Assembly: GCA_043813075.1 (NCBI GenBank)
Contig: JBDRLL010000006.1
Location: 1 to 64,000, forward strand
Source: Candidatus Altiarchaeota archaeon
GTDB taxonomy: Archaea > Altiarchaeota > Altiarchaeia > IMC4 > SCGC-AAA252-I15
Direction: 5' to 3'
Length of the DNA stretch: 64,000 bases
The notes beneath the pieces are model-generated. The model was given only the letters and a program-made list of their open reading frames with translations. It had not been told where the DNA came from and ran no database searches. Numbering within the stretch: the first letter of the stretch is position 1; each line of letters begins with the position of its first letter. Shown here piece by piece: positions 33,423 to 49,441 of this stretch. The translations under genes were made by a program, and so were the position numbers.

Positions 33423-35726
33423 ATGAGTGGTAAATCAGAGACAAAAGAGAAAAAGACTGCTAAGCACAAGCAGGATAAGAAATTCAAGGTGGACATAAAA
33501 TACGGTGGATATGACCTGAAGTTCAACATAAAGCCAACACCACAACTGATATCCAACATACTCGTATTCCTTATAATATACTGGTACCTGCTCTCCATAT
33601 TCACCCCCAAACTGATGCTGTTGGAGACCATAACAACAGGCGGGGACACGGCCTCACACTACTACCCGACTAAATTCCTCAAGGAAGAGCTCATACCAAA
33701 GGGGCATATAATCGGCTGGCTGCCGGGATGGTACGGTGGTATGCCATTGTTCCAGTTCTATTTCCCAGTCCTATTCGTCCTGATAGCATTCATGAGCTAC
33801 GTGATACCGCTACAGATAGCCTTCAAGATTGTGAGCGCGTTAGGGGTGTTCCTGCTGCCGTTAACCGCGTTCCTTGCCATGAGAGTCATGAAATTCAGGT
33901 ATCCGATGCCCATCATAGCCGCCATATTCACGATGCCGTTCCTATTCATGGAGTCGCACACGATGTGGGGCGGCAACATACCGAGCACGCTAGCTGGAGA
34001 ATTCACTTACGGCTGCAGCATGTCGCTGATGGTGCTGCTGCTTGCAATGATATACAGGGGGCTTGAGGAGGACAAATGGATAATCAGGAACGCTGTTTTC
34101 ATGGCCATAGTCTGCTTGACGCACGTTTACACGATAATATTCACTGTCGCCTCGATACCATACCTTTATTTCACTAGGAACGTCAAGGAGTTAAAAAGGA
34201 GGATAGTGTACTCCCTGAAAGTCTACCCCCTGGCAATCATGCTGACAGGATTCTGGCTTATCCCGCTTCTCGCAAGACACAAGTGGACTGCAGTATACGA
34301 CTTCGTGTGGGACATCACGGAAGAGGTGTTCCCGGTGCTCCTGTATCCGTTCTTCCTTTTCATGATTATTGGGATACACATGATGATCATAAACCAGGAT
34401 AAGAGGGTGGGGTTCATGTTCTTCTCGATAATAGCGTCATTACTGTTGTTCAAGTTCGGGAGCCTGCTTGGCGCCGGAATGGTTGACATAAGGTTCCTCC
34501 CGTTCACATACCTCTACACCCTCCTCATCGCAGCATACGGGATGTACACTTTGGTGAAGAATGTTGAGGGGGCCTGGATTCTGCCGCTCATAATCGTCTT
34601 CCTAACCCTATTTTGGATAAACGAGTACAACGTAAGCGTCCCCAATGAAGGAGTCACCATGGACTTCATAGTGCAGGAACTCAAAAACTTCAGGTATCAT
34701 GGCTTCACACCCTCATGGGTGAAGTGGAACTACGACGGCTTCGAGAGGAAGATGCGGTGGGCAGAGTTCAAGGAGGTGAACGACTACCTGACTGGGACAT
34801 ACAATGACCCTAGAGTAAAGTTCGAGCACAACGACCACCACAACGAGGCGGGAACGGTCAGGGCCTACGAGTCCGTCCCACTCTTCGCTGGAAGGTCGAT
34901 ACTTGAGGGGTTGTACATGCAGTCGATACACACTTCAGTGTTCTCGTTCCTCATTCAGGCAGAAGTCTCAAAACAACAGTCATGCCCCTACTGGCACCGG
35001 TTCCCGTGCACGCATTTTGACATAGAAAACGGGACCAAACACATGCTAATGTTCAACGTGCGGCACATAATAGTCAGGAGCGACATGCTGAAGGAGGCGC
35101 TGCGGGAGAGAGAAGACTACAAGATGGTCTTGGAGACAGACAACCATGAGATATGGGAGCTGACTGATAACACAGGCCATTATGTGACAGTGCCCCAGTA
35201 TGAGCCGGTGCTCTTCAAGACAGACACCTGGCTGAATGACTCATACAACTGGTTCAGGAACATGAGCCTGATAGACACGCCGCTCGTGTTTGTGGAGGAG
35301 ATAGAGCCGGAGGACGCAGTATACTTCAGAAACGTCAAGGAAGATGGGGATTGGAGGGACATCCCGAAGGTGCCATTAGACAATAACTGCAACATAGAGG
35401 AGAAGCTGACTGCGGACGAGATATGGTTCAAGACGGACTGCGTGGGCAAACCACACATAATAAGCGTGTCCTACTACCCTAGCTGGAGGCCGGTCGGGGC
35501 AGATAAAGTGTATCTGATATCGCCTTCATTCATGATGGTAATACCAGAGCAGGAGGAGGTTAGGCTTGTGTACAGTAAGCTTCCGGAGGACTGGATAGGG
35601 CTTTTACTGAGTTTCACTGGATTTTTGACGGTATCCTGTGTCATAGCATACTACGGTAATGGTAGGGTGAGGAAGATGATTGACGGTAGCATGCTGGGTG
35701 ACGCATACAGGAAGTACGCTTCCTAG
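33423..35726 (+). CDS. GT-C-like membrane protein (6-pyruvoyl-tetrahydropterin synthase-related/YfhO-like)
   Basis: GGDTASH, GWLPGWYGGMPLFQFYFP, STLAGEF, SYYPSW; many TMs. Confidence 0.8.
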   Translation: MSGKSETKEKKTAKHKQDKKFKVDIKYGGYDLKFNIKPTPQLISNILVFLIIYWYLLSIFTPKLMLLETITTGGDTASHYYPTKFLKEELIPKGHIIGWLPGWYGGMPLFQFYFPVLFVLIAFMSYVIPLQIAFKIVSALGVFLLPLTAFLAMRVMKFRYPMPIIAAIFTMPFLFMESHTMWGGNIPSTLAGEFTYGCSMSLMVLLLAMIYRGLEEDKWIIRNAVFMAIVCLTHVYTIIFTVASIPYLYFTRNVKELKRRIVYSLKVYPLAIMLTGFWLIPLLARHKWTAVYDFVWDITEEVFPVLLYPFFLFMIIGIHMMIINQDKRVGFMFFSIIASLLLFKFGSLLGAGMVDIRFLPFTYLYTLLIAAYGMYTLVKNVEGAWILPLIIVFLTLFWINEYNVSVPNEGVTMDFIVQELKNFRYHGFTPSWVKWNYDGFERKMRWAEFKEVNDYLTGTYNDPRVKFEHNDHHNEAGTVRAYESVPLFAGRSILEGLYMQSIHTSVFSFLIQAEVSKQQSCPYWHRFPCTHFDIENGTKHMLMFNVRHIIVRSDMLKEALREREDYKMVLETDNHEIWELTDNTGHYVTVPQYEPVLFKTDTWLNDSYNWFRNMSLIDTPLVFVEEIEPEDAVYFRNVKEDGDWRDIPKVPLDNNCNIEEKLTADEIWFKTDCVGKPHIISVSYYPSWRPVGADKVYLISPSFMMVIPEQEEVRLVYSKLPEDWIGLLLSFTGFLTVSCVIAYYGNGRVRKMIDGSMLGDAYRKYAS

Positions 35727-36415
35727 CGGACTTTAAGCCAGAGGGAAACCAGGTTTTTGAAGCGGTAGAATATCTCGTTCACTAGGTTGAATTTGCTTCC
35801 CCTAGTGTCATTGCAGAAGACGGGTATCTCAACAACGCTGCCGCCATCCTTCTTTACGTGATAAACCAGTTCGATCACGTAGGATGAGCCGTGGTCTATG
35901 TCCTTCACGTAGGGGAGTATGTCAGACCTAACCCAACCCTTGGTGCCTATGCTATAGTCGCGGTAGTCCAGCCCCAGCAGCGCTCGGACCAGCTGTATGA
36001 ATACGCCGCTTATGAATGTCCTGTAAGCCTTCCTCTCCTGCTTCCCCAGGTACTTTGAGCCTATGACCACGCTATTATCATCTAGCTTGGAGACGCAGTC
36101 TTTTATGAAGCTGAGGTCTGAAGATAGATCCATGTCGAGGGATACAAGCTTCTCTGAGGATGCTGCGTCAACCATCTTGGTGAAGGCGTAGCCTACGCCA
36201 CGACGGGGTATGAATAGGAACCTGAATCTGCCGGGATACCTTTCCTCGAGAACACGCCCCAATTCCACCGTACGGTCCGTGGAACCGTTGCTGCATACTA
36301 TAACCTCGTATTCGCCAATCTTCGCCTTATCAAGGTATTTTATCAGCTTGCCGGTGTTTTCAACGAGCAGCTCCTCCTCATTGTAGACAGGTATCATAAC
36401 GGAAAAGTCCATCAT
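35723..36415 (-). CDS. GT2 glycosyltransferase
   Basis: MIPVYNEE, NGSTDRT, LDMDLS. Confidence 0.88.
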   Translation of the reverse strand: MMDFSVMIPVYNEEELLVENTGKLIKYLDKAKIGEYEVIVCSNGSTDRTVELGRVLEERYPGRFRFLFIPRRGVGYAFTKMVDAASSEKLVSLDMDLSSDLSFIKDCVSKLDDNSVVIGSKYLGKQERKAYRTFISGVFIQLVRALLGLDYRDYSIGTKGWVRSDILPYVKDIDHGSSYVIELVYHVKKDGGSVVEIPVFCNDTRGSKFNLVNEIFYRFKNLVSLWLKVR

Positions 36416-36454
36416 TAGATTAAATTAAAAGCACAGGCATAATTAAATCTTAAA

Positions 36455-36901
36455 GTGACCGGGAAAAAGGCTAAGAACGCTGGGAAGGGGTTTAGTGCGC
36501 GTGGAAAAGGCATTGCCCATAGGAGACTAGCGTATGCCATTATTGTTATCATAGCGTACTCTCTGCCAGCATACCTGTTGTATGAGAACTACTCGAAGAA
36601 CGACAAGAGCAGTATGGACGGCGGGTGGGGGTACGGCACCGGAGTGTTCGAGGCCCTTGACGAGGATGCGCTGATACTTAGCAGATGGTCGGCTTACACC
36701 CTCCTCAACCACTTCAAGTACGTGGTGTATGATAGGGGGGATGTGACCATACTTTCGAGGCGTAAGATCGACTGGCTTAAGGAGGTTGACAGGAACTATG
36801 GTGAGAAGCCAGTATACTTGACTGAGATGGATGATAAGGTCTCTGAGAAATACGTTCTAGAGAGGGTCGGTGGGATATATCATGTCAAGAAAAGGAAATA
36901 G
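36455..36901 (+). CDS. C-terminal half of a DUF2723/TMEM260-like protein, encoded separately
   Basis: One TM, then ENYSKNDKS..YG..VFEAL.EDALIL..W...L...RGDVTIL...KPVYL, matching the post-TM region of DUF2723 proteins. Confidence 0.65.
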   Translation: MTGKKAKNAGKGFSARGKGIAHRRLAYAIIVIIAYSLPAYLLYENYSKNDKSSMDGGWGYGTGVFEALDEDALILSRWSAYTLLNHFKYVVYDRGDVTILSRRKIDWLKEVDRNYGEKPVYLTEMDDKVSEKYVLERVGGIYHVKKRK

Positions 36902-37973
36902 GTGGGGGGGTGTCACTCCAGGGCTTATCGTATTCACAACCACGCTAGTCGTGTATCTTAGCACAGTGTCTACAAACGTTGGTAGGGGGGATACGGGAGA
37001 ATTCCAGACGCTCCCATATGTGTTCGGCATAGCGCATCCAACGGGATACCCCACATACATCCTACTGGGTAGCGTATTCAGATGGATTCCGCTAGGTTCT
37101 TATGCATACAGGATTAACCTCATGTCCGCATTCTTCGGGTCGGTTACCGCATACCTCCTTTACAGGATTGTAATGAAGTACGCGGAAAACGTGTATGCCG
37201 CTTCAGCCGCCGCCCTAACCCTCGCCTTCAGCAAGCTATACTGGAGCCAGTCGGTCATAGCGGAAGCATATATCCTGAACGCATTCTTCCTCGTCTCATG
37301 CCTACTACTACTGCTTGAATGGAGGGATGGGGGAGACAACAGACTACTCTACGCGTTTAGCATACTATATGGCATTGGCTTAGGCAACCACATGTCCCTC
37401 GCACTCTACGCCCCGGCCTACGCATTCATAATACTTAGGAGGGATTGGAGGGTGCTGCTTGACGGCAGATTATTGAAGATGTTCGCCTTATTCGCCATAG
37501 GAGCCTCAGTCTACGCCTACATCCTAATACGCGACAACCCCGGGACCCCGATGAACTACATACACGAGTTCTCGGTGGAACACGGGACGTTCAACTACTC
37601 CGAAAACGCCGTTAAAGACAGGTTCGAGAGGCTTGGCTGGATGGTCAAGGGACGGCAGTTCAACGCAGACGAACTGACATACAAGAGGCTTACTAGCACC
37701 ATGGAAGAGCAGAGACTACGGGAGTCATGGGGAAGGATTATGGAGCAGATAACAGTCTTCGGGGCTATACTCTGCATCATTGGAGTCTCACGCCTCTTCA
37801 TGAAGGACAAGCCGATGCTGGCTGCAACAATCATCTTCTTCACGCTAAACACCATGAGGTTTGGTGGTGGAATGTACGAGCACAGCATACCTTCAGTGAT
37901 AATATGCTGCATATGGATAGGATTCGGTGTTGAACAAACGTCAGAATACGTGCGTCAGAGAGTGCTGGTGTAG
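36882..37973 (+). CDS. N-terminal half of a DUF2723/TMEM260-like glycosyltransferase
   Basis: GDTGEF, GIAHPTGYPTY, RINLMSAFF, WSQSVIAEAY, GLGNH; ends just after IPS...WIGFG. Confidence 0.85.
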   Translation: MSRKGNRWGGVTPGLIVFTTTLVVYLSTVSTNVGRGDTGEFQTLPYVFGIAHPTGYPTYILLGSVFRWIPLGSYAYRINLMSAFFGSVTAYLLYRIVMKYAENVYAASAAALTLAFSKLYWSQSVIAEAYILNAFFLVSCLLLLLEWRDGGDNRLLYAFSILYGIGLGNHMSLALYAPAYAFIILRRDWRVLLDGRLLKMFALFAIGASVYAYILIRDNPGTPMNYIHEFSVEHGTFNYSENAVKDRFERLGWMVKGRQFNADELTYKRLTSTMEEQRLRESWGRIMEQITVFGAILCIIGVSRLFMKDKPMLAATIIFFTLNTMRFGGGMYEHSIPSVIICCIWIGFGVEQTSEYVRQRVLV

Positions 37974-39517
37974 TTCACGTGCCTGAACAGCTGGGCGTAC
38001 CTTCGCTCGTCTATAATCTCGTAATCACCGCTCTCATTGACTGTATACACGGACTCCAGCTCATTGCGTACGAGACGCGTGTCAAGCAGGACGAAATCCA
38101 CGTCCGTGTCCGGATGCACTCCACTATCCTTGATGCCGTATAGGTTCACCCTAAACGGGTTGGGGAACATGTAGACACGCTCCCTGTGGGTCAGATGGGA
38201 CACAAAGTTGTAGGATGCCGAGACCCTAGCATCTTCTGGAATCAACTCCATCAACTCCAACACCTCAGCATACTCCCCATGAGGCCTGCCAAGCTTGGTT
38301 ATGGTATCCCAAGTCATCTCATAGTTGGATATCTTCGCTTCTCCAGGACCTATCTCCTCGTTCCCTATGAGGGTGAACACAACGAGTACAAGCAGGAGTC
38401 CGTATACACTCCATTTCCGTGACTTGTATCTGGCGACCCCGTTAATGATGGATATGAAGACGAATGGTATTATGGGGGTGACGTAGTGGAACCTGATTTC
38501 ATGGGCGTATGACCAGTCGGTGATCAAGTTGAGGTACAGGGAGGCTGCCGCTGCCATGGACGGCAGGTCCAGGAAGAAGAGGAATCCGGTTGGAAATAGG
38601 ACGTCCATGAAGTACTTGTAGTTCTTTGCTGTAACGACTTTGTTGAACATGAAGAATGGGTTGGTCAGGCTCTTGACCTTGTCCATCGTGGTCTTCCCGA
38701 AAGACCCGAGAGTCCTGCCGGTGTAGAACGCACCCTCAGTATTGAAGTAGGGGAAGAAGACGTGCATCACTAGCAGCACCCATATTAGTGACGTTGCCGT
38801 CGTGACCGCGCCGACACGCTTGTCTATCTTGAAGAATATGTATATGCCGAAGAGTATGTAGCTGAATGATATCTCCTCCTTGCATATGAGCGAGAAGAAA
38901 TACATCGCATAGTATGCGCGGAACCTCCTGTGCATTAGAAACCAGTAGCCGAAAAGCGTCAGGGGGACCATGAAGCTCTCATAATGGTAGCCTTGGTCGA
39001 GGTTAGAGTAGTGGACTGCGGGATAGAAGATGTATGCGAACGAGAATACCAGCGGAATCCAATAGCTGTCGAACTTATCCCTCGCAATAAGGTACACTGG
39101 TATGGCCCCGGCAGCCAGCACGAGAGTGTGCAGGAGTATCAGGGCGCGCACGTCATTCCAGAGCCAGTATAACGGGGCCACGAAGATGTGTATGAAAGAA
39201 GTGTGGTCTCCGAAGAAGTGAAGCCCCCTGGTCGTAAGGTAGGGTGTTTTAAAGCGGGATAAAAGCCAGATGCCCTGGTCAGGTATCCCCAAATCGAAGT
39301 TCCCATACCAGAACATGTTGTACTGGTTCAATACCGTGAAACAGAATACCAGCAGGTATAGACCGATCATGAGCGCCAGGATCATATAAGGAACTATCCT
39401 CGAACCCTTAATCCACCCACACGCAAGTGAGGCCTTATTCAAAATAGGCTTAAAACCCAATTTTTTCGCGATCCCAATCCTAGAGCTCTTCTTTGCCTTA
39501 CGTCCCTTAGAAGCCAC
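37955..39517 (-). CDS. DUF2079 membrane protein (GT-C-like)
   Basis: FDLGIPDQ, FGDHTS, YHYE, KEE, FHY, IP.DARVSAS, HLTHR; start estimated at GTG 39517. Confidence 0.82.
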   Translation of the reverse strand: MASKGRKAKKSSRIGIAKKLGFKPILNKASLACGWIKGSRIVPYMILALMIGLYLLVFCFTVLNQYNMFWYGNFDLGIPDQGIWLLSRFKTPYLTTRGLHFFGDHTSFIHIFVAPLYWLWNDVRALILLHTLVLAAGAIPVYLIARDKFDSYWIPLVFSFAYIFYPAVHYSNLDQGYHYESFMVPLTLFGYWFLMHRRFRAYYAMYFFSLICKEEISFSYILFGIYIFFKIDKRVGAVTTATSLIWVLLVMHVFFPYFNTEGAFYTGRTLGSFGKTTMDKVKSLTNPFFMFNKVVTAKNYKYFMDVLFPTGFLFFLDLPSMAAAASLYLNLITDWSYAHEIRFHYVTPIIPFVFISIINGVARYKSRKWSVYGLLLVLVVFTLIGNEEIGPGEAKISNYEMTWDTITKLGRPHGEYAEVLELMELIPEDARVSASYNFVSHLTHRERVYMFPNPFRVNLYGIKDSGVHPDTDVDFVLLDTRLVRNELESVYTVNESGDYEIIDERRYAQLFRHVNYTSTL

Positions 39518-39557
39518 TTTAGAAACAATATTTACATTAACAACATTAATATTAAGC

Positions 39558-40274
39558 ATGACCCGGGTTTTAGTGATGCTGCCCACATACAATGAGGCTG
39601 AGAACATAGGGAGCATTATAGGAGACATCCTGGAGCAAGGAGAGGATGTGGACGTGCTGGTTGTGGACGACTCTTCGCCGGACGGAACATGGAGGATAGT
39701 GGAGGGGATTTCATCAGAGAACTCCAGGGTCAATCTACTGAAGCGCGAGGGAAAGAGGGGTAGGGGCCTGGCGGGGGTGGAGGGATACAAGTACGGTATT
39801 GAGAACAAGTACGATGCCATACTTGAGATGGACGCGGACTACAGCCATGACCCGGAGCACATACCTGAACTCCTTAAAGCCCTTGAAGACGCAGACGTCG
39901 TTCTTGGGTCTAGGCTGGTGGAAGGCGGGATGGAGACGGGTAGACCGTGGATGCGGAGGATTATCACAAAACTCGCAAACACATATATAAGGCTGATGCT
40001 GGGGTTGGACGTGAGGGACTGCAATTCCGGATTCAGATGCTTCAAACGCGAGGTGCTTGAGGCCATAAAGCCGGAGACCATAACGTCTGAGGGACCTGGC
40101 ATAGTGCAGGAGGCACTTTTCAAGGCCCACTTAAAAGGATTCAGGATAAGGGAGGTCCCCATACGATTCAAAGACAGGGTTGCCGGGGAATCCAAGCTGG
40201 GTGTAGGCGCTTTAATTAGCGGATACACTTTAATATTAAAGTTGAAGTTTCATAGTATGTTAGGTGGTGATTGA
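39558..40274 (+). CDS. Polyprenol/dolichol-phosphate mannose synthase-like GT2
   Basis: PTYNEAENI, VDDSSPDGT, MDADYSHDP, D.NSGFR. Confidence 0.9.
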   Translation: MTRVLVMLPTYNEAENIGSIIGDILEQGEDVDVLVVDDSSPDGTWRIVEGISSENSRVNLLKREGKRGRGLAGVEGYKYGIENKYDAILEMDADYSHDPEHIPELLKALEDADVVLGSRLVEGGMETGRPWMRRIITKLANTYIRLMLGLDVRDCNSGFRCFKREVLEAIKPETITSEGPGIVQEALFKAHLKGFRIREVPIRFKDRVAGESKLGVGALISGYTLILKLKFHSMLGGD

Positions 40275-41214
40275 AATAAGGGTTCTGGTCACAGGCGCAA
40301 GCGGCTTCATAGGCTCCCACCTATGCCGGCTACTTCTTGAGGAAGGATGTGAAGTCTACGCCTCGTACCTTTATGACGAGGAATTGTACAGGATAAACGA
40401 CATCAAGGAGGAGGTCACTATGATGAAGTGCGATGTCGCTGACAGAAACAGGGTGGAAGCCGCGATAGAGGAGGCGGAGCCGGAAGTGGTCTACCACCTG
40501 GCAGCCCAGAGCTTCCCGACGGTATCCTGGGAGAAGCCGGCTGAAACACTTAGGACTAACGCTGAAGGCACTGTCAACATATTCGAGTCGGTGATGAGGC
40601 AAGACCTGGACTCGAGGATAATAGTAGCGTGCTCGAGCGCGGAATACGGGCTGGTGAGGGAAGATGAAGTCCCAGTCAACGAGGAACACACCCTCCTGCC
40701 ACTGCACCCGTATGGGGTAAGCAAGGTGGCGCAGGACCTTCTGGCATACCAGTACCATAAGAACCACGGCGTGAAGACGGTCAGGCTTAGGGTATTCAAC
40801 ACCACGGGCCCCAGCAAGACCAATGACGTGTGCAGCGACTTCACCCGGAGGGCTGTTGAGGCTGAGAAGAAAGGCGGTGGAGTGATGAGGGTGGGGAACC
40901 TGGAGCCCAGGAGGGATTTCACTGACGTGAGGGACATGGTGAGGGCGTTCCGCCTGTCCACCAAGCTGGCGGACAAGGGGGACGTATACAACGTGTGCTC
41001 CATGAAGGCTGTGAAAGTAAGGGAAGTGCTGGACACAATACTATCTCTGACAGAGAACGTCACCTCCGAGATTGATGAAGCACTCTTAAGGCCCAGCGAC
41101 GAGCCGGTGATACTGGGAGACAACACGAAAATAAGGAAGGCGTGTGGGTGGAAGCCGGAAGTGGCGTTGGATAAGACTCTTTCAGACATGATGGACTACT
41201 GGAGAGGCATGTGA
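40264..41214 (+). CDS. GDP-sugar SDR (Rmd/Gmd-like)
   Basis: TGASGFIG, HLAAQS, SSAEYG, PYGVSK, GNL...RDFTDVRD. Confidence 0.85.
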   Translation: MVIEIRVLVTGASGFIGSHLCRLLLEEGCEVYASYLYDEELYRINDIKEEVTMMKCDVADRNRVEAAIEEAEPEVVYHLAAQSFPTVSWEKPAETLRTNAEGTVNIFESVMRQDLDSRIIVACSSAEYGLVREDEVPVNEEHTLLPLHPYGVSKVAQDLLAYQYHKNHGVKTVRLRVFNTTGPSKTNDVCSDFTRRAVEAEKKGGGVMRVGNLEPRRDFTDVRDMVRAFRLSTKLADKGDVYNVCSMKAVKVREVLDTILSLTENVTSEIDEALLRPSDEPVILGDNTKIRKACGWKPEVALDKTLSDMMDYWRGM

Positions 41215-41215
41215 A

Positions 41216-42334
41216 CTAGACGCATAACACGCATATCTCGTCGCCTGCTATGAAGGCGTCGCAGTTGGCGTCCACATACTGGCCTATCTTCTTATGCCTG
41301 AGTTGGCATGCTGCTTGCGCTGACTGCAGGTCGCGCTGGCAGCTGCTGCCTGGAAGCACGTTACTGCAGCTAACTGGTGGTGACTGGGACTTGCAGGTGA
41401 CGCACAATTCATCTCCAGGATTGAATGCATCGCAGTTGGCATTAACAGTCTGGTCCACCACCTTGCCCTGAAGCTGGCATGAAGACTGTGCCGCCTGGAG
41501 GGTGCGCTGGCAGCTGCTGCCCTGCAGGACGCTGCTGCACTTGACTGCAGGTGACGGAGACTTGCATTTAACGCACAATTCGTCCCCTGGATTCATGCGG
41601 TCGCAGTTAGCCTGCTGGGTCTGGTCGATGACCATGTTCATAAGCTGGCATGAAGACTGTGCCGCCTGCATGTCGCGCTGGCAGCTGCTGCCTGGAAGCA
41701 CCTGGTTGCAGGGCGTGAAAGGTGAAGGCGCCTTGCAAGTGACGCAGACTTCTGGTCCGATCCTGAATGCATCACAGTCAACGGTGATTACCTGGTCGAC
41801 GACCATGTTCTTAAGCCCGCACGCCGCCTGGGCTGCCTGAAGGTCGCGCTGACAGCTACTGCCTGGAAGCACCTTGCGACAGGAGGACTTTGGGGGAAGG
41901 GTTGTGGTCGTGGTTGTGGACTTACACTGCCTTAAGCCCCTGCAGTCAGGGTCCTTGCAGTCGACCAGGCCGTCACAGTCGTCGTCCGCCTTGTTAGAGC
42001 ATTTTTTCCCCTTCTCGCTCCCGGATTTCTTGCAGTTGGGGTCTGCGCAGTCTATGAGTCCGTCACAGTCGTCGTCAACCCCGTTAGAGCATTTATTACG
42101 CATCTCCTTCCCCCGCATCGAGTTCTTGCATCCAGGATCCTTGCAGTCGACCAGGCCGTCGCGGTCGTCATCCACACCGTTAGAGCACTTCTTCCTGCCC
42201 TTCTCAGGACGTGACTTGCCCTTCTTGGAGGATACTGTTGAGGCAAGAGCCCAAGTCACTAGGATAAGCACCATGATGACTACAAGAGTCTTCTGGCTTG
42301 TTTTTCGGAGCCTTACATTCATAGAGGAGGACAT
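41216..42334 (-). CDS. Secreted Cys-rich repeat protein
   Basis: Signal peptide; 3x CSNxxDDDxDGLxDCxDPxC; poly-Thr; 4x 57-aa six-Cys repeat, also visible as a 171-bp DNA repeat. Confidence 0.8.
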   Translation of the reverse strand: MSSSMNVRLRKTSQKTLVVIMVLILVTWALASTVSSKKGKSRPEKGRKKCSNGVDDDRDGLVDCKDPGCKNSMRGKEMRNKCSNGVDDDCDGLIDCADPNCKKSGSEKGKKCSNKADDDCDGLVDCKDPDCRGLRQCKSTTTTTTLPPKSSCRKVLPGSSCQRDLQAAQAACGLKNMVVDQVITVDCDAFRIGPEVCVTCKAPSPFTPCNQVLPGSSCQRDMQAAQSSCQLMNMVIDQTQQANCDRMNPGDELCVKCKSPSPAVKCSSVLQGSSCQRTLQAAQSSCQLQGKVVDQTVNANCDAFNPGDELCVTCKSQSPPVSCSNVLPGSSCQRDLQSAQAACQLRHKKIGQYVDANCDAFIAGDEICVLCV

Positions 42335-42371
42335 TACGTAAAGATAATAGGCGTATTTAATTAAAAAAAAG

Positions 42372-44360
42372 TCAGGTGAAGCAGGGCATCCAGTCGAGTG
42401 GCGTGTCGTCTGCAACATCCGCTTCACCGAGCTTGCTGCAGTATCCAAGGTCGCTTTCACCGGTGACTATGAAGTTGTACGTGTTCCCAGTCAAGTCCGC
42501 CAACCGCGGGTTGTTGAAGTTCACCTCACACGTCATGTTGTAGTACGTCGGATCCGCGTCAACATACTCTGTCTTGCATGCGTCAAGGAATAGGTAGTCT
42601 GTGCCATTGTCAAGGTAGAACGCCCAGTAAGTCTCCTCGTCAAAGCCGTGAGTACCAAGCCAGTATACGCTGACATCCTTGACGTCGCCGCATGTGACAG
42701 GCTCCCCGTCAACGTTAATCCAGTATATCCTGTCGATAGTACCTCCTGGAATGCATTTCTCCTTAAGGCCTCCGGGATTGAATCCGGACAGCTCGGTGTA
42801 GGATATGCAGCCCTTTAGGAGCACGTTCCTGCTGTAGACTGCGTCGGCGATGAAGTTCATTTCTGGCGTGCAGTAGCCGGCGTAATCCTCTGCAGTGACT
42901 ATAAGGTTATGGAATCCGTCGGCAGCATCCAGGTTGACGGGCACGTTCACGTTGCATATCATGTCGTAGTTGTATGCGCGCTCAGGATCCTCGGGGGTTG
43001 TGTTCGTGCTATTGCAGGAGTCCAGATAGTGGGCTCCATCATCCAGGAAGAAAGCCCAGTGATTGAAGTCGCTGTTATGGTTGCCATGCCATCTGACGGT
43101 GATGTCAAGGGACTTGCCGCACTGTAGGGGACGCAGCACTGTGACGTCGTCTATGACGACCACTGGATTAGCGCCGTCAAAACAATCGAATTGAGCCTCC
43201 CCGACGCATGACACGACGTGGGTGTTGGGGGACAGCGTTGTCGTCGTGGTTGTCGACACTATAGGTTCATATCGTCCGCTACTCCATATAACAACCCTCT
43301 GCTTGAATGTGTTTTTCAGTATCCTCTGTTTCCCGCTCAACAGGGTCAGGTCATCCATAGGCTCGCTGAATGACGCTGTCTTGACACTGCTGACGAAATC
43401 TGGAACCTCATCGCTCATAACGTGGTTTCCGACGATGCACTCCTTGATGCTGTTCGGGTTTCCATAGGACCAGGTATTGCTGTTTCGGGGGTCGTAGAGT
43501 GCATCAGTGGTCAGTAGGACAACGTCTATCAGGCTGTTGGGGTCTGTGTTGTCAAAGTATAGTTGTATCGAGTGTCCAGCGAATACACCGCCGACCTTGC
43601 TCCATTCAACGGAGCCTCTTAGAGTATTGAAGATGTAGAACGGCTCGCCGTCGACGACTATCTGGAGCACAGTGCTGCTGCTGAGGCCCCTAACCCATAT
43701 GTGGTAGTAGCCTGGAGTCGTCTCAACAGTCTTCACGTTGTTGCCGTCATACTGCAGTTCGCTCATGAAACCGGCGGAACAACCGCGACTACATCGACTG
43801 GTCGTGTTAAACCCCCAGAATCGCTCGTCCTCAGCCTCAATCCATATGTGGGTGTCTGTGGTGTGGTTTGTTATGGTGAAGTTGAATCCGTTGAGGCATG
43901 ATACTGGACGGTTATTTTCGTCGAGATGAATGCCCTGCATGCAACCAACATCTGACGTGTTGATGCACGAGTATACTATGTAGAAGTCGTATCTGCTGGA
44001 GCCGAGAAGACTCCTCCTTATATCAGTGTAATTCTCCTCCAGGTTCTTGATGAAATTCAACAGCTTATCAGGGTCGACGATACGATCCTGGAAGAAGACT
44101 CGCTCGCCGACAGGGGTTATGTCCGAAAGACCGTAGACTTTAACCGTATCCTGCTTCCAGTCTTCAGGGTATCCGGGAGTCTTAACCAGCTGCTCGCCGA
44201 CGGAGTCTGACAGCCACTGCATCTCGAATATCCTAAGGTCGCCGCTGATGTCCATTGTGACCGAATCCCAGAGGTAGATTACTATGGAGAATATGACTAG
44301 GAACAATACCGCCGAGAATGTGAGATCCCATGTGAATACCTGCCCCCTGCCCCCCCTCAA
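42372..44360 (-). CDS. Large type IV pilin-like protein with duplicated C-terminal domain
   Basis: RG|QVFTWDL, LVKTPGYPEDW, Thr linker, two W.G.H...WAF.LD.G...C...IVT.E...GYC domains; start estimated at TTG 44360. Confidence 0.75.
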   Translation of the reverse strand: MRGGRGQVFTWDLTFSAVLFLVIFSIVIYLWDSVTMDISGDLRIFEMQWLSDSVGEQLVKTPGYPEDWKQDTVKVYGLSDITPVGERVFFQDRIVDPDKLLNFIKNLEENYTDIRRSLLGSSRYDFYIVYSCINTSDVGCMQGIHLDENNRPVSCLNGFNFTITNHTTDTHIWIEAEDERFWGFNTTSRCSRGCSAGFMSELQYDGNNVKTVETTPGYYHIWVRGLSSSTVLQIVVDGEPFYIFNTLRGSVEWSKVGGVFAGHSIQLYFDNTDPNSLIDVVLLTTDALYDPRNSNTWSYGNPNSIKECIVGNHVMSDEVPDFVSSVKTASFSEPMDDLTLLSGKQRILKNTFKQRVVIWSSGRYEPIVSTTTTTTLSPNTHVVSCVGEAQFDCFDGANPVVVIDDVTVLRPLQCGKSLDITVRWHGNHNSDFNHWAFFLDDGAHYLDSCNSTNTTPEDPERAYNYDMICNVNVPVNLDAADGFHNLIVTAEDYAGYCTPEMNFIADAVYSRNVLLKGCISYTELSGFNPGGLKEKCIPGGTIDRIYWINVDGEPVTCGDVKDVSVYWLGTHGFDEETYWAFYLDNGTDYLFLDACKTEYVDADPTYYNMTCEVNFNNPRLADLTGNTYNFIVTGESDLGYCSKLGEADVADDTPLDWMPCFT

Positions 44361-46198: not shown

Positions 46199-49100
46199 TC
46201 AACCCAAATTCTTTAATTTATTTTTTACATACTTTATGACTTCATCAATCTCGCCAGACATGTCAGGGTGCTTTGACTTGAAGTCCTCCAGCTCGTTTAT
46301 TATGTCCTTGCCTGCCTGCCCTAAACCCTTCTTGTCTTCATGCAGCTTGCCTAGTACCGTGGCCAAAACCTTCTCCTTTTCGGAAACACCACCAACAGAT
46401 GGTTTGACCTCTGATTTACCTGCAGTCTGTAACTCCTTCTCCTTCTGCCTCAAACGTTCCTCCCACTCAGACAGCTCTCGCTCGCGTTCTGAAGCATCAT
46501 TGGGCATGTCAGCGTGGGAGCGTATTTTCTTCTCCATCTCATGCAGGTCATGCTCCTTCTCCTTCAGACGCTGCTCCCAGTCGAAGAGCTTATGCTCCCT
46601 GCCTGAAAGACCGCCCTTGAACTCTGAATCCGTCCCATGATCGGATAACTCGGCCTCCCTCTTGTCCAGTTCGCTGGAACGCCTGTTCAACTCCTGCTCC
46701 CATTTTGAAAGCCTGCCCTCAAGTTCCGGGTCATGGGATGGGACAGAACCGGAAAACAACTCCTCCCGTTCGGAGATGGCTTTTTCACGTGCGTCAAGCT
46801 CGCTCGCACGCTTAGCTAATGCATCCTCCAGGTCCGCGGACTCGCCGCCATCGGGAGCATGTTCATGTAGAGAACGCTCCTTCTCAGAGACTTCTTCCTC
46901 CCGCTTGATAACCGCTTCCAGACGCTCGTTAACCGTCTTTTCCTTTGAAGAAAGGGATTCTCGAACATCATTTAGCCTAGCAGACTCCTTCCCCAACTCA
47001 ACCTCCCTTTCGGACAGCAGCCTCTCCCGCTCATCGATTTCCCCAATCCTCTCCTTAAGCACATCATCGGACTCCCCGGAGAAGTGCTTATCACCCAAGA
47101 CCGCCTCCTTCTCCGCGATGGTCGCCTCCCTGTGGACTATGTTAGACTCCCTCTTCTGCAACTCAGCCTCCATCTTCGACAGCTTAGCCTCCTTCTCATC
47201 TAGCTCCGGTAGCTTTAAAGTCACATCCTGCTCGGAATCGTTGATCTTCCTCTCCCTAGCCTCAAGCTCGCCAGCCCTCTGGTTTAGATTGGTCTCCCTC
47301 TTATTCAACAACTTCTCGCGCTCAGCTAGGGTGGCGTTAGACTCCTCTATCTTAGCCTCACGCTTCTCCAAGTTGGCTTCGCGTTCGCCGATAAGACGCT
47401 CCCTCTTTGTGAATGAATCAGCCTTCTTCTCTATATCAGCCGCATAGCCGCTGAAATCGCTCTCACGCTTGACCAAAACAGTCTCCCTATTCTTCATCTC
47501 CTGGAACTTCTGGTTCAACTCCCCGTCACGCGCTTCAGCCGCCTTCTCACGCTTCTCGACGAGTACCAGACGGGATTTTATCTCGCCCTCCACCTTACCG
47601 ACATTGGATTCCCGCTCCTTCAGTATCTTTTCAGCCTCAGTCAACGCATTCTTTGTTGCGTTAACCTGCTGCTCACGAGCCTCAAGCCTTGACTGCGCTT
47701 CACCAAGCTTGTTTTCCCTGTCGTCAAGAGCCTTCCCGCGCTTATTCAACTCCGCATTCCTTGTGTTAAGCTCGGATTCCCTGGATTTTATCCCAGATTC
47801 CCTGTCCGTCAGCTCCTTCTCCTTGGGTTTGATCGCAGCCTCCCTCTGATTCAGGTTCGACTCCTTTTCACCGAGCATGCGTTCCTTGTCTGACTGCCGC
47901 TCCTCCCTGGACTTGACTGCCTCCTCACGCTTTCCGAGTTCTGTCTCCCTGCCATTTAGCACAGACTCCCGATCCTTTAAGGCAGCCTCGTTTGAGTCCA
48001 GCTCAGACTGCCTGCGTGAAAGGCCCTCATCCCTCTGATTAAGCCCGTCTTCCCTCGACTTCGCGGTTTTCTCAGACTCTGAAAGAATCTTCTCCCTTGC
48101 CTTCAAGTCAGATTCCCGGGAGTTAAGAGAGTCCTCCCTGGTGTCAAGCTCCGAATCCTTCTTTATGAGCGCCCGTTCCCTCTCCTTAAGCGCCTTATCG
48201 TCCTCCGCGAGATTAGCCTCCCTTGCTGAGAGGGATGAATCCGTCCTAGCGAGATCCTCAGATTTGGCGAGAAGACTACTCTCCCGGGCATCCAGCTTAG
48301 ACTCCCTCTCACTCAAAACCCTTTCACGCGCATTCAAACCCTCTTCAATCACGTCGAGGGCTGACGCCCTATCATCTATGTTCTCCACTCTAGCGCTCAA
48401 CTCACCCTCACGAGCGTTAACATCGCGCTCCCTGTCATTCAGCTTACTCTCACGGGATTTGACGGAAGACTCCCTGCCCTTGAGCTCTGACTCAAGGGAA
48501 CGCAACTCCTTCTCAGCCACGTCAAGCCCATTAGACTTCTTGTTCAACTCGGATTCCTTCTTACCCAGCTCTAACTCCTTCCCACCCAATTTCTCTTCTT
48601 TACTATCGAGTTTCTCCTTCTGCTCATGCAACTCCTTCCTCAGCTCCTCAACAGACTTCTTCTCTGACTTCAGCTTGCTCTCACGGTCCAGAATGCTCTT
48701 CTCCTTCCCGTCCAGCTCCGCCTTCTTTACCTTTATCAGCTCCTCCTGCGCGATTATCGCTTTTTCACGAGCCTCGAACTCGTGGACGTCCCGTATGAAG
48801 TCGTCCTGCATGGACGCTAGCCTATGCTCCCATCCGGTGAAATGCTCCTCCTTAGCCTGAAGATAATCCCTGTCATGGCGTTCGACACGTGGACTTGGCG
48901 CAGGCCTCTGGACCACCGTCTCCCTCATGACTTCGGGAGGCTTCTTCCGCTTCTTAGCCTGCTCCTTGTGCTTTTCAATCTCCTCCTCAACCTTTTCTTT
49001 AACAGCGTCATCCTGGGGCAAGTCAACCTTGCGGTCTTCAGTGTCCGGTTGGCTGCCATCACCGGAGTCGGACGGGGGTATGGGCGAGGATATGGACTCT

Positions 49101-49441
49101 CCCTCGCCTTTTGTGGCGGCGATACGCCGTTCAAGAACTCGTTTATGCATCAGACCTATGATTTCATCGGCAGACTCGCTTGACTCAGCCTCCTCCTTAT
49201 CCAAGCCCGTTATTTCCTCTTCATCAAGGTCTGCGTCGATACGAGAACCAGGCTTGAATACGGTTTCACCCACTATCGTGTAATGGATTTTTATGATCTC
49301 ATGGTCTTTCAGTATCTTGGCGATGTTTATGACCGTTTCCTCATCTTCGCCGAGACGTGAGACAGCATCCTCTAGCTTTATCTCCTTAGCCTCCTTAACC
49401 AGTTCTGTGAAACGCTGTAGAACACTCTTGTCTAAAGGCAT
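46199..49441 (-). CDS. 1080-aa coiled-coil protein with N-terminal winged-helix-like domain
   Basis: Long runs of LxxRExx heptads; no TM or signal peptide. Confidence 0.85.
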   Translation of the reverse strand: MPLDKSVLQRFTELVKEAKEIKLEDAVSRLGEDEETVINIAKILKDHEIIKIHYTIVGETVFKPGSRIDADLDEEEITGLDKEEAESSESADEIIGLMHKRVLERRIAATKGEGESISSPIPPSDSGDGSQPDTEDRKVDLPQDDAVKEKVEEEIEKHKEQAKKRKKPPEVMRETVVQRPAPSPRVERHDRDYLQAKEEHFTGWEHRLASMQDDFIRDVHEFEAREKAIIAQEELIKVKKAELDGKEKSILDRESKLKSEKKSVEELRKELHEQKEKLDSKEEKLGGKELELGKKESELNKKSNGLDVAEKELRSLESELKGRESSVKSRESKLNDRERDVNAREGELSARVENIDDRASALDVIEEGLNARERVLSERESKLDARESSLLAKSEDLARTDSSLSAREANLAEDDKALKERERALIKKDSELDTREDSLNSRESDLKAREKILSESEKTAKSREDGLNQRDEGLSRRQSELDSNEAALKDRESVLNGRETELGKREEAVKSREERQSDKERMLGEKESNLNQREAAIKPKEKELTDRESGIKSRESELNTRNAELNKRGKALDDRENKLGEAQSRLEAREQQVNATKNALTEAEKILKERESNVGKVEGEIKSRLVLVEKREKAAEARDGELNQKFQEMKNRETVLVKRESDFSGYAADIEKKADSFTKRERLIGEREANLEKREAKIEESNATLAEREKLLNKRETNLNQRAGELEARERKINDSEQDVTLKLPELDEKEAKLSKMEAELQKRESNIVHREATIAEKEAVLGDKHFSGESDDVLKERIGEIDERERLLSEREVELGKESARLNDVRESLSSKEKTVNERLEAVIKREEEVSEKERSLHEHAPDGGESADLEDALAKRASELDAREKAISEREELFSGSVPSHDPELEGRLSKWEQELNRRSSELDKREAELSDHGTDSEFKGGLSGREHKLFDWEQRLKEKEHDLHEMEKKIRSHADMPNDASERERELSEWEERLRQKEKELQTAGKSEVKPSVGGVSEKEKVLATVLGKLHEDKKGLGQAGKDIINELEDFKSKHPDMSGEIDEVIKYVKNKLKNLG

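Follow-up and report, generated by a model that had tools for sequence, protein, structure and literature searches.

Two overlapping open reading frames (ORFs) in a 64,000-nt window of a Candidatus Altiarchaeota archaeon genome (GenBank assembly GCA_043813075.1, contig JBDRLL010000006.1, positions 1 to 64,000; "the window" below means this whole stretch) encode complementary parts of a membrane glycosyltransferase of the TMEM260-like (DUF2723) family, the gene for the C-terminal part lying upstream of the gene for the N-terminal part. The upstream tail gene (36455-36901) is termed C-ORF here, and the downstream core gene (36882-37973) is termed N-ORF. Based on sequence comparisons and structural models we consider it fairly probable (roughly 0.65) that the pair is a genuine and maintained two-gene form of a minimal, TPR-less TMEM260-like glycosyltransferase of the GT-C class, with the tail gene placed first, and that the two products act as a two-subunit enzyme.

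The two ORFs are complementary and non-redundant, and their order is reversed, far beyond what would be expected by chance. On the 623-aa protein P0003, residues 19-360 were covered by N-ORF (E-value 3e-43) and residues 369-487 by C-ORF (4.7e-13, library-wide); by BLASTP the C-ORF match fell at residues 394-490 (1e-19). Paralogues encoded elsewhere in the same genome were divided in the same way, with N-ORF matching residues 11-351 of one of them (L002, 1e-47) and C-ORF matching residues 355-476 of another (L001, 2e-4). Among the 135 proteins gathered, 78 matched both halves, and in all 78 the core match ended before the tail match started; the order tail then core was found in none of these 78 single chains. 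An initial annotation of the window had described both ORFs with their family motifs, a 20-nt overlap in different frames and a Lys-rich start of the upstream half, and it had proposed complementary, non-redundant halves in reversed order that should cover full-length DUF2723 proteins side by side. All of this was borne out: the ORFs and motifs are present where it placed them, the BLASTP and profile comparisons gave adjacent and non-overlapping coverage in reverse order each time, the overlap holds with the N-ORF start at ATG 36882, and the first 24 residues of C-ORF form a cationic tail (8 K/R, no D/E, net charge +8).

To place the halves on a solved structure, a family profile was aligned to human TMEM260 (9rql_A), which it matched over residues 30-474 (E-value 1.2e-68). 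In the available part of the TMEM260 cryo-EM preprint, to which every statement taken from it here is limited, the protein has eleven transmembrane helices (TMH, residues 24-415), a luminal Rossmann-like domain with the catalytic base D441 (416-564), and a TPR domain (565-706) (10.64898/2026.03.17.711096). On this map the split point falls in the cytoplasmic loop between TMH10 and TMH11.

N-ORF matched the Pfam family TMEM260-like (DUF2723) PF11028 (E-value 2.8e-31, 109.1 bits with a gathering cut-off of 24.2) as well as the human structure itself (9rql_A, 1e-22). Its first outer loop reads GRGDTGEFQ...HPTGYP; here D37 and H52 align with human D52 and H67, which bind the donor sugar, and both are invariant across 39 relatives. 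In the donor-loading loop R258 stands one column past human R264 and F260 at the Y267 column, in chained alignments that are uncertain at this place. The AlphaFold2 model of N-ORF is a confident helical bundle (predicted local distance difference test, pLDDT, 89.5; predicted TM-score 0.90) and its best Foldseek matches were the GT-C enzymes PglB, STT3, AglB, Pmt4 and ArnT (14 chains at E-value <=1e-3, TM-score on the query 0.56-0.62), in result lists from which TMEM260 entries were absent. N-ORF is predicted to be the equivalent of TMH1-10 of TMEM260, ending in the cytoplasmic loop ahead of TMH11, where the helix counts rest on homology to the solved structure, a hydropathy scan being too crude.

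NCBIfam returned no match for any of four proteins searched, C-ORF among them, and C-ORF had none in Pfam, the latter because the PF11028 model covers only the N-terminal 179 positions. A HMMER (phmmer) pass over 1.84 billion representative proteins returned 32 proteins at E-value <=1e-3, with values down to 4.7e-13 against single-chain relatives. Most of the non-self matches (26 of 31) are proteins of 367-1077 aa that were matched in their C-terminal part, typically at residues ~350-478 of 457-481-aa proteins ending at that point; the remaining five are short, and three of these (P0021, P0028, P0029) lack an initial Met and are fragment-like. The AlphaFold2 model (pLDDT 91) has a helix at residues 18-49 followed by an alpha/beta domain. 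Homology and model together point to a cytoplasmic N-tail, a single helix equivalent to TMH11, and a Rossmann-like extracytoplasmic domain at residues ~50-146. A Foldseek search with the C-ORF model gave no match at E-value <=1e-3 and only weak Rossmann-like hits, and no TPR match to either ORF was found in Pfam. In a word-index search with C-ORF, 322 candidates longer than the query yielded no match and 16 candidates of similar length yielded only C-ORF itself; both are weak blanks, as the index missed the free-standing relative P0002 described below.

The GTG of C-ORF is the earliest start codon downstream of an in-frame TAA at 36440. N-ORF is open from GTG 36870 (36870-37973, 367 aa), and its true start is likely ATG 36882, because the public gene call (P0033) equals the resulting 363 aa and because the closest relative, P0034, opens MSAERNR where N-ORF opens MSRKGNR. 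The frame of N-ORF is +1 relative to that of C-ORF (427 = 3x142+1). A weak Shine-Dalgarno-like GGTG inside the end of C-ORF (Table 1), which was compared with the 3' end of the 16S rRNA of this genome (GGATCACCTCC), might serve in translational coupling of the two genes. The spacer ahead of C-ORF contains TTAAATTAAAAG at 36420-36431, that is 24-35 nt 5' of the C-ORF GTG, and it presumably carries divergent archaeal promoters. The host is an archaeon with two genes for the TATA-binding protein in its genome, in which no match to sigma-70 was found; a scan for sigma-70 promoters and terminators yielded nothing useful, the sigma-70 model being inapplicable to archaea. The two TATA-binding protein genes lie on separate contigs of this genome (G000, C2:14313-14828 and C19:56205-56711) and have the usual two repeats in each. 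At the other side of the pair, the last 19 nt of N-ORF overlap the 3' end of the convergent DUF2079 gene.

Relatives from metagenomes break at the same points. P0034 (359 aa, from a contig of 3,893 nt) is 57% identical to N-ORF over 99% of the core, opens with its own Met at the position homologous to the N-ORF start, and stops in the same loop, 3 residues short of N-ORF. P0002 (131 aa) is a free-standing tail protein with 45% identity to C-ORF (55 identical columns), a Met start eight residues ahead of the same helix and its own stop at the end, and it occurs on 4 contigs, the longest being 17,956 nt. A third protein, P0035 (536 aa, 47% identity to the core), retains an 11th helix of its own and continues into an unrelated, Cys-containing beta-type C-terminal domain of ~160 aa without a Pfam match; it probably lies on one contig with P0002, the longest contig of both being 17,956 nt. 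In the phylogenetic trees N-ORF, P0034 and P0035 formed a clade (SH-like approximate likelihood ratio test, SH-aLRT, 99) and C-ORF and P0002 were sisters (SH-aLRT 88). Scans of metagenome contigs with C-ORF and with P0002 confirmed no relative, and profile scans of genome contigs found nothing with alignment A1 and, with alignment A3, only 14 bacterial full-length relatives of <=39% identity. Another metagenomic protein, P0008 (215 aa, Met start), spans roughly helices 9-11 plus the Rossmann-like domain and is either split at another point or a miscalled fragment.

The codon usage of both ORFs is native: their in-frame codon scores (-3.93 and -3.98) lie next to those of three neighbouring genes (-3.86 to -3.93), and off-frame scores are -4.65 or lower. 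Taken with the break points of the relatives and with the complex model described next, this makes the split look real and maintained.

A model of the two-chain complex, for which an alignment was given for each chain, scored 0.91 compared with 0.01 for the best of 3 controls, where the passing mark is reached by 58 of 80 solved complexes and by 2 of 110 mismatched pairs. Contacts agreed by >=97% between runs, and the pLDDT of the partners was >=83. In the model the helix of C-ORF packs on core residues 24-40, 105-126 and 346-362, and tail residues 78-91 contact the catalytic loop 36-47. The initial annotation had suggested a heterodimeric enzyme and had named such a modelled reconstitution as a check; the heterodimer gains support from the complementary halves, the truncation point of P0034, the free-standing P0002 and the model, which passes its controls. 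Such an enzyme would arise in the following way. Both ORFs would be co-transcribed from the short spacer that they have in common with the divergent GT2 gene, and the two polypeptides would be translated through the 20-nt stop/start overlap. The 148-aa product would insert N-in/C-out by means of its +8 tail and single helix, and the 363-aa core would insert with both termini in the cytoplasm. Docking of the single helix on the core helices would then set the Rossmann-like domain over the first outer loop, as in the single chains, and the assembled enzyme would move a sugar from a polyprenyl-phosphate-sugar, probably the product of the neighbouring GT2, onto an extracytoplasmic acceptor that is probably a surface protein.

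Several points weigh against a maintained two-subunit enzyme. A pass of the complex model indicates complementarity of fold and is not proof of binding in the cell, and it may reflect intrachain packing because single-chain relatives are present in both alignments. The catalytic base of the human enzyme, D441, has no acidic counterpart in C-ORF, which reads S-R-W-S-A at that loop. The same place is END/DGD in the host's own TPR-bearing paralogues and S-W-W in the minimal single chains of 457-481 aa, so that the lack of the base characterises the minimal subfamily rather than stemming from the split. The likeness of P0034 and P0002 to the pair concerns the split point as read from proteins, not gene order or adjacency, and the P0035 lineage, with its own helix 11 and a different outer domain, is not a simple copy of the arrangement in the window. 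A search of 61 species genomes of this small phylum found no orthologue of the pair. In these the tail domain occurred only within open frames of 665-733 aa and core matches lay in frames of 604-787 aa, bar two contig-end fragments, one of which was checked. A seeming N-only match of 374 aa (G020:C231) was rejected as a normal gene cut at a contig end. Finally, no RNA run was found among the public sequencing runs that contain the sequence, and three of four runs yielded short Logan contig pieces, 8 in all, each matching the window at 100% identity; none of these spans 36407-36911 or 37922-38527, which leaves three junctions unbridged. The short identical pieces, within 35700-38700 of the window, came from runs of two studies, one on a biofilm metagenome (2016) and one on a groundwater metagenome (2024), and a near-identical strain therefore recurs.

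That the two ORFs are decaying, non-functional leftovers of one or of two tandem DUF2723 genes is unlikely. Two intact, longer paralogues in the genome could cover the function, and the missing orthologous pair in the phylum would agree with a local decay. Against this, both ORFs are intact, with native codon usage and retained conserved motif positions, both parts gave confident models (pLDDT 91 and 89.5), and the shared end of P0034 at 57% identity and the shared start of P0002 at 45% imply long maintenance.

Doubtful, too, is the proposal that the two products function independently of each other, the core alone being a minimal GT-C enzyme and the 148-aa protein having another or a dispensable role. 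It draws on the absent acid at the D441 column, in which case D37 of the core loop could be the base, as a loop Asp has been proposed for other GT-C enzymes in the available part of the TMEM260 report (10.64898/2026.03.17.711096), and on the different outer domain of P0035. However, in all 78 single chains that match both halves the tail domain is part of one polypeptide with the core, the two genes share 20 nt, the complex model far exceeds its best control, and the Rossmann-like domain is required in human TMEM260 according to the same part of that report.

P0035, with an alternative outer domain alongside the free palm-like protein P0002, hints at a wider form of the two-subunit reading: the pair would belong to an ancient and conserved clade of such GT-C enzymes, where a membrane-anchored, Rossmann-like palm is provided in trans and may pair with various cores, the tail-first order having been selected so that the small anchor is made first, ready to cap the nascent core. 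We regard this as speculative and improbable.

An assembly artefact, in which the contig mis-joins pieces of a normal gene, is very unlikely. The genome is a 41-contig bin of 89% completeness, and the unbridged junctions would allow such an error, but the locus is interior to a contig of 110,532 nt, no notable repeats flank it and no composition break was found, the same break point occurs in two other assemblies, and the junctions bear evolved features, namely a new GTG start opening a +8 tail not seen in relatives, the stop/start overlap and a promoter-like spacer of 39 nt. The other proposal of the initial annotation, a circularly permuted gene joined by a +1 shift, is scarcely credible when taken as a programmed frameshift at AAG-AAA-AGG-AAA-TAG (36887-36901) that fuses C-ORF to N-ORF: a forward slip of tRNA-Lys by one base on AAA-A is conceivable and would lead into the frame of N-ORF, but C-ORF ends outside and the core must begin in the cytoplasm, so that fusion would invert the 11-helix topology as given in the available part of the TMEM260 report, AGG is the commonest Arg codon (53%) and so not slow or "hungry", P0034 and P0002 have their own Met start and their own stop at the homologous points, and none of the 78 single chains is permuted.

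As to the origin of the arrangement, C-ORF stops at the end point of the minimal single chains, N-ORF opens at their start point, and the one directly adjoins the other. Such a junction fits the duplication with reciprocal trimming put forward in the initial annotation, as it would remain where two tandem copies meet once their outer halves were lost; a direct translocation of the tail could equally have produced it. The last core residues are encoded antisense to the 3' end of the DUF2079 gene, which fits a deletion on that side.

Among single chains, the closest in architecture are the minimal prokaryotic DUF2723 proteins of 457-481 aa (such as P0004, P0005 and P0006 from metagenomes), which have the same domain set without TPR and the same end as C-ORF, and which share with it a W-rich loop replacing the human G-D; they differ in being one polypeptide with the N-then-C order and are 27-35% identical to C-ORF. 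The host's own paralogues (contigs C9 and C34) are of the same family and 33-38% identical to N-ORF, whereas each is one chain (634 aa and >686 aa) that carries TPR repeats and the acidic D441 column noted above. The human protein O-mannosyltransferase TMEM260 (9rql/9rqm/9rqn; PF11028) shares with the pair the first-loop Asp and His, the last helix and the Rossmann-like domain. It differs in being a single chain of 11 helices with TPR, whereas the pair consists of two chains split between TMH10 and TMH11, with the genes reversed, no TPR and no acid at the D441 column. Protein O-mannosylation dependent on dolichyl-phosphate-mannose is the activity of the human relative, and for the pair sugar transfer is putative. 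In TMEM260 the outer Rossmann-like domain completes the active site, according to the available part of the report (10.64898/2026.03.17.711096).

If the two-subunit reading is true, core and palm would fold and insert independently, the helix 10/11 loop would be a ready split point for engineering and structural work on bacterial and archaeal members of the family, and the locus would be a clear case of a gene that split with an exchange of order; it would gain in importance should the tail-first order turn out to be conserved. As a class, GT-C glycosyltransferases are membrane enzymes made as one large chain. A bipartite glycosyltransferase is known in Alg13/Alg14, a UDP-GlcNAc transferase with bacterial two-gene counterparts, in which the halves are separate polypeptides assembling at the membrane; it differs from the pair in its GT-B fold, its soluble or peripheral nature, its nucleotide-sugar donor and the absence of an order swap. 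A literature search of titles and abstract openings, which mostly did not cover subscription journals, turned up no report of a GT-C or DUF2723 gene that is split or permuted. The pair, probably a two-subunit enzyme, is an evolutionary curiosity within a known family and not a new kind of system.

The pair lies within a glycosylation cluster that extends from 32.5 to 41.2 kb of the window, the features of which are listed in Table 1. From its neighbours and family, the likeliest role of the pair is that of a two-subunit transferase of a sugar from a polyprenyl-phosphate-sugar to a surface protein, where donor and acceptor are suggested by family knowledge only. We take the GT2 glycosyltransferase next to C-ORF to be a candidate polyprenyl-phosphate-sugar synthase that would supply the lipid-linked donor, on the basis of its family, and the 285-aa protein at the head of the cluster is a possible acceptor. 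In the DUF2079 ORF the PF09852 match begins at residue 170, and from the listed ATG at 39820 the ORF runs ~260 nt antisense into the second GT2 gene; this start is probably too far upstream, the true one being an internal Met.

Table 1. Features of the glycosylation cluster around the gene pair (positions are those of the window).
Feature	Position	Strand	Details
Small surface-type protein, 285 aa	32510-33367	+	signal-like N-terminus, NPCBM_assoc/NEW3-like domain, C-terminal helix, basic tail
Polytopic membrane protein, 767 aa	33423-35726	+	PTPS_related PF10131, 1.5e-25
GT2 glycosyltransferase, 230 aa, divergent	35723-36415	-	PF00535, 4.5e-18
A/T-rich spacer, 39 nt	36416-36454		between divergent GT2 gene and C-ORF
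C-ORF, "palm" piece	36455-36901	+	148 aa, GTG start
GGTG, weak Shine-Dalgarno-like	36869-36872	+	9 nt 5' of ATG 36882, inside C-ORF end
Gene overlap, 20 nt, different frames	36882-36901	+	ATG 36882 to TAG 36899-36901
N-ORF, GT-C transmembrane core	36882-37973	+	363 aa from ATG 36882
DUF2079 membrane protein, convergent	37955-39820	-	PF09852, 9.8e-56
Second GT2	39558-40274	+	PF00535, 9.2e-28
GDP-mannose-4,6-dehydratase-like NAD-dependent epimerase/dehydratase	40264-41214	+	PF16363, 2.6e-69

Two further ORFs were recorded downstream of the cluster, both on the reverse strand. The first (41216-42460) encodes a Cys-rich, secreted-looking protein of 414 aa without a Pfam match, with three repeats of the form KCSNGVDDDxDGLxDCxDPxC followed by four repeats of ~55 aa of the form VLPGSSCQRxxQAAQ...C. 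The second (46199-49441) is an ORF of 1080 aa whose sole Pfam match is to the RNase_Y_N region (3.4e-28, in two stretches), a match that may reflect a coiled-coil and not a true RNase Y.

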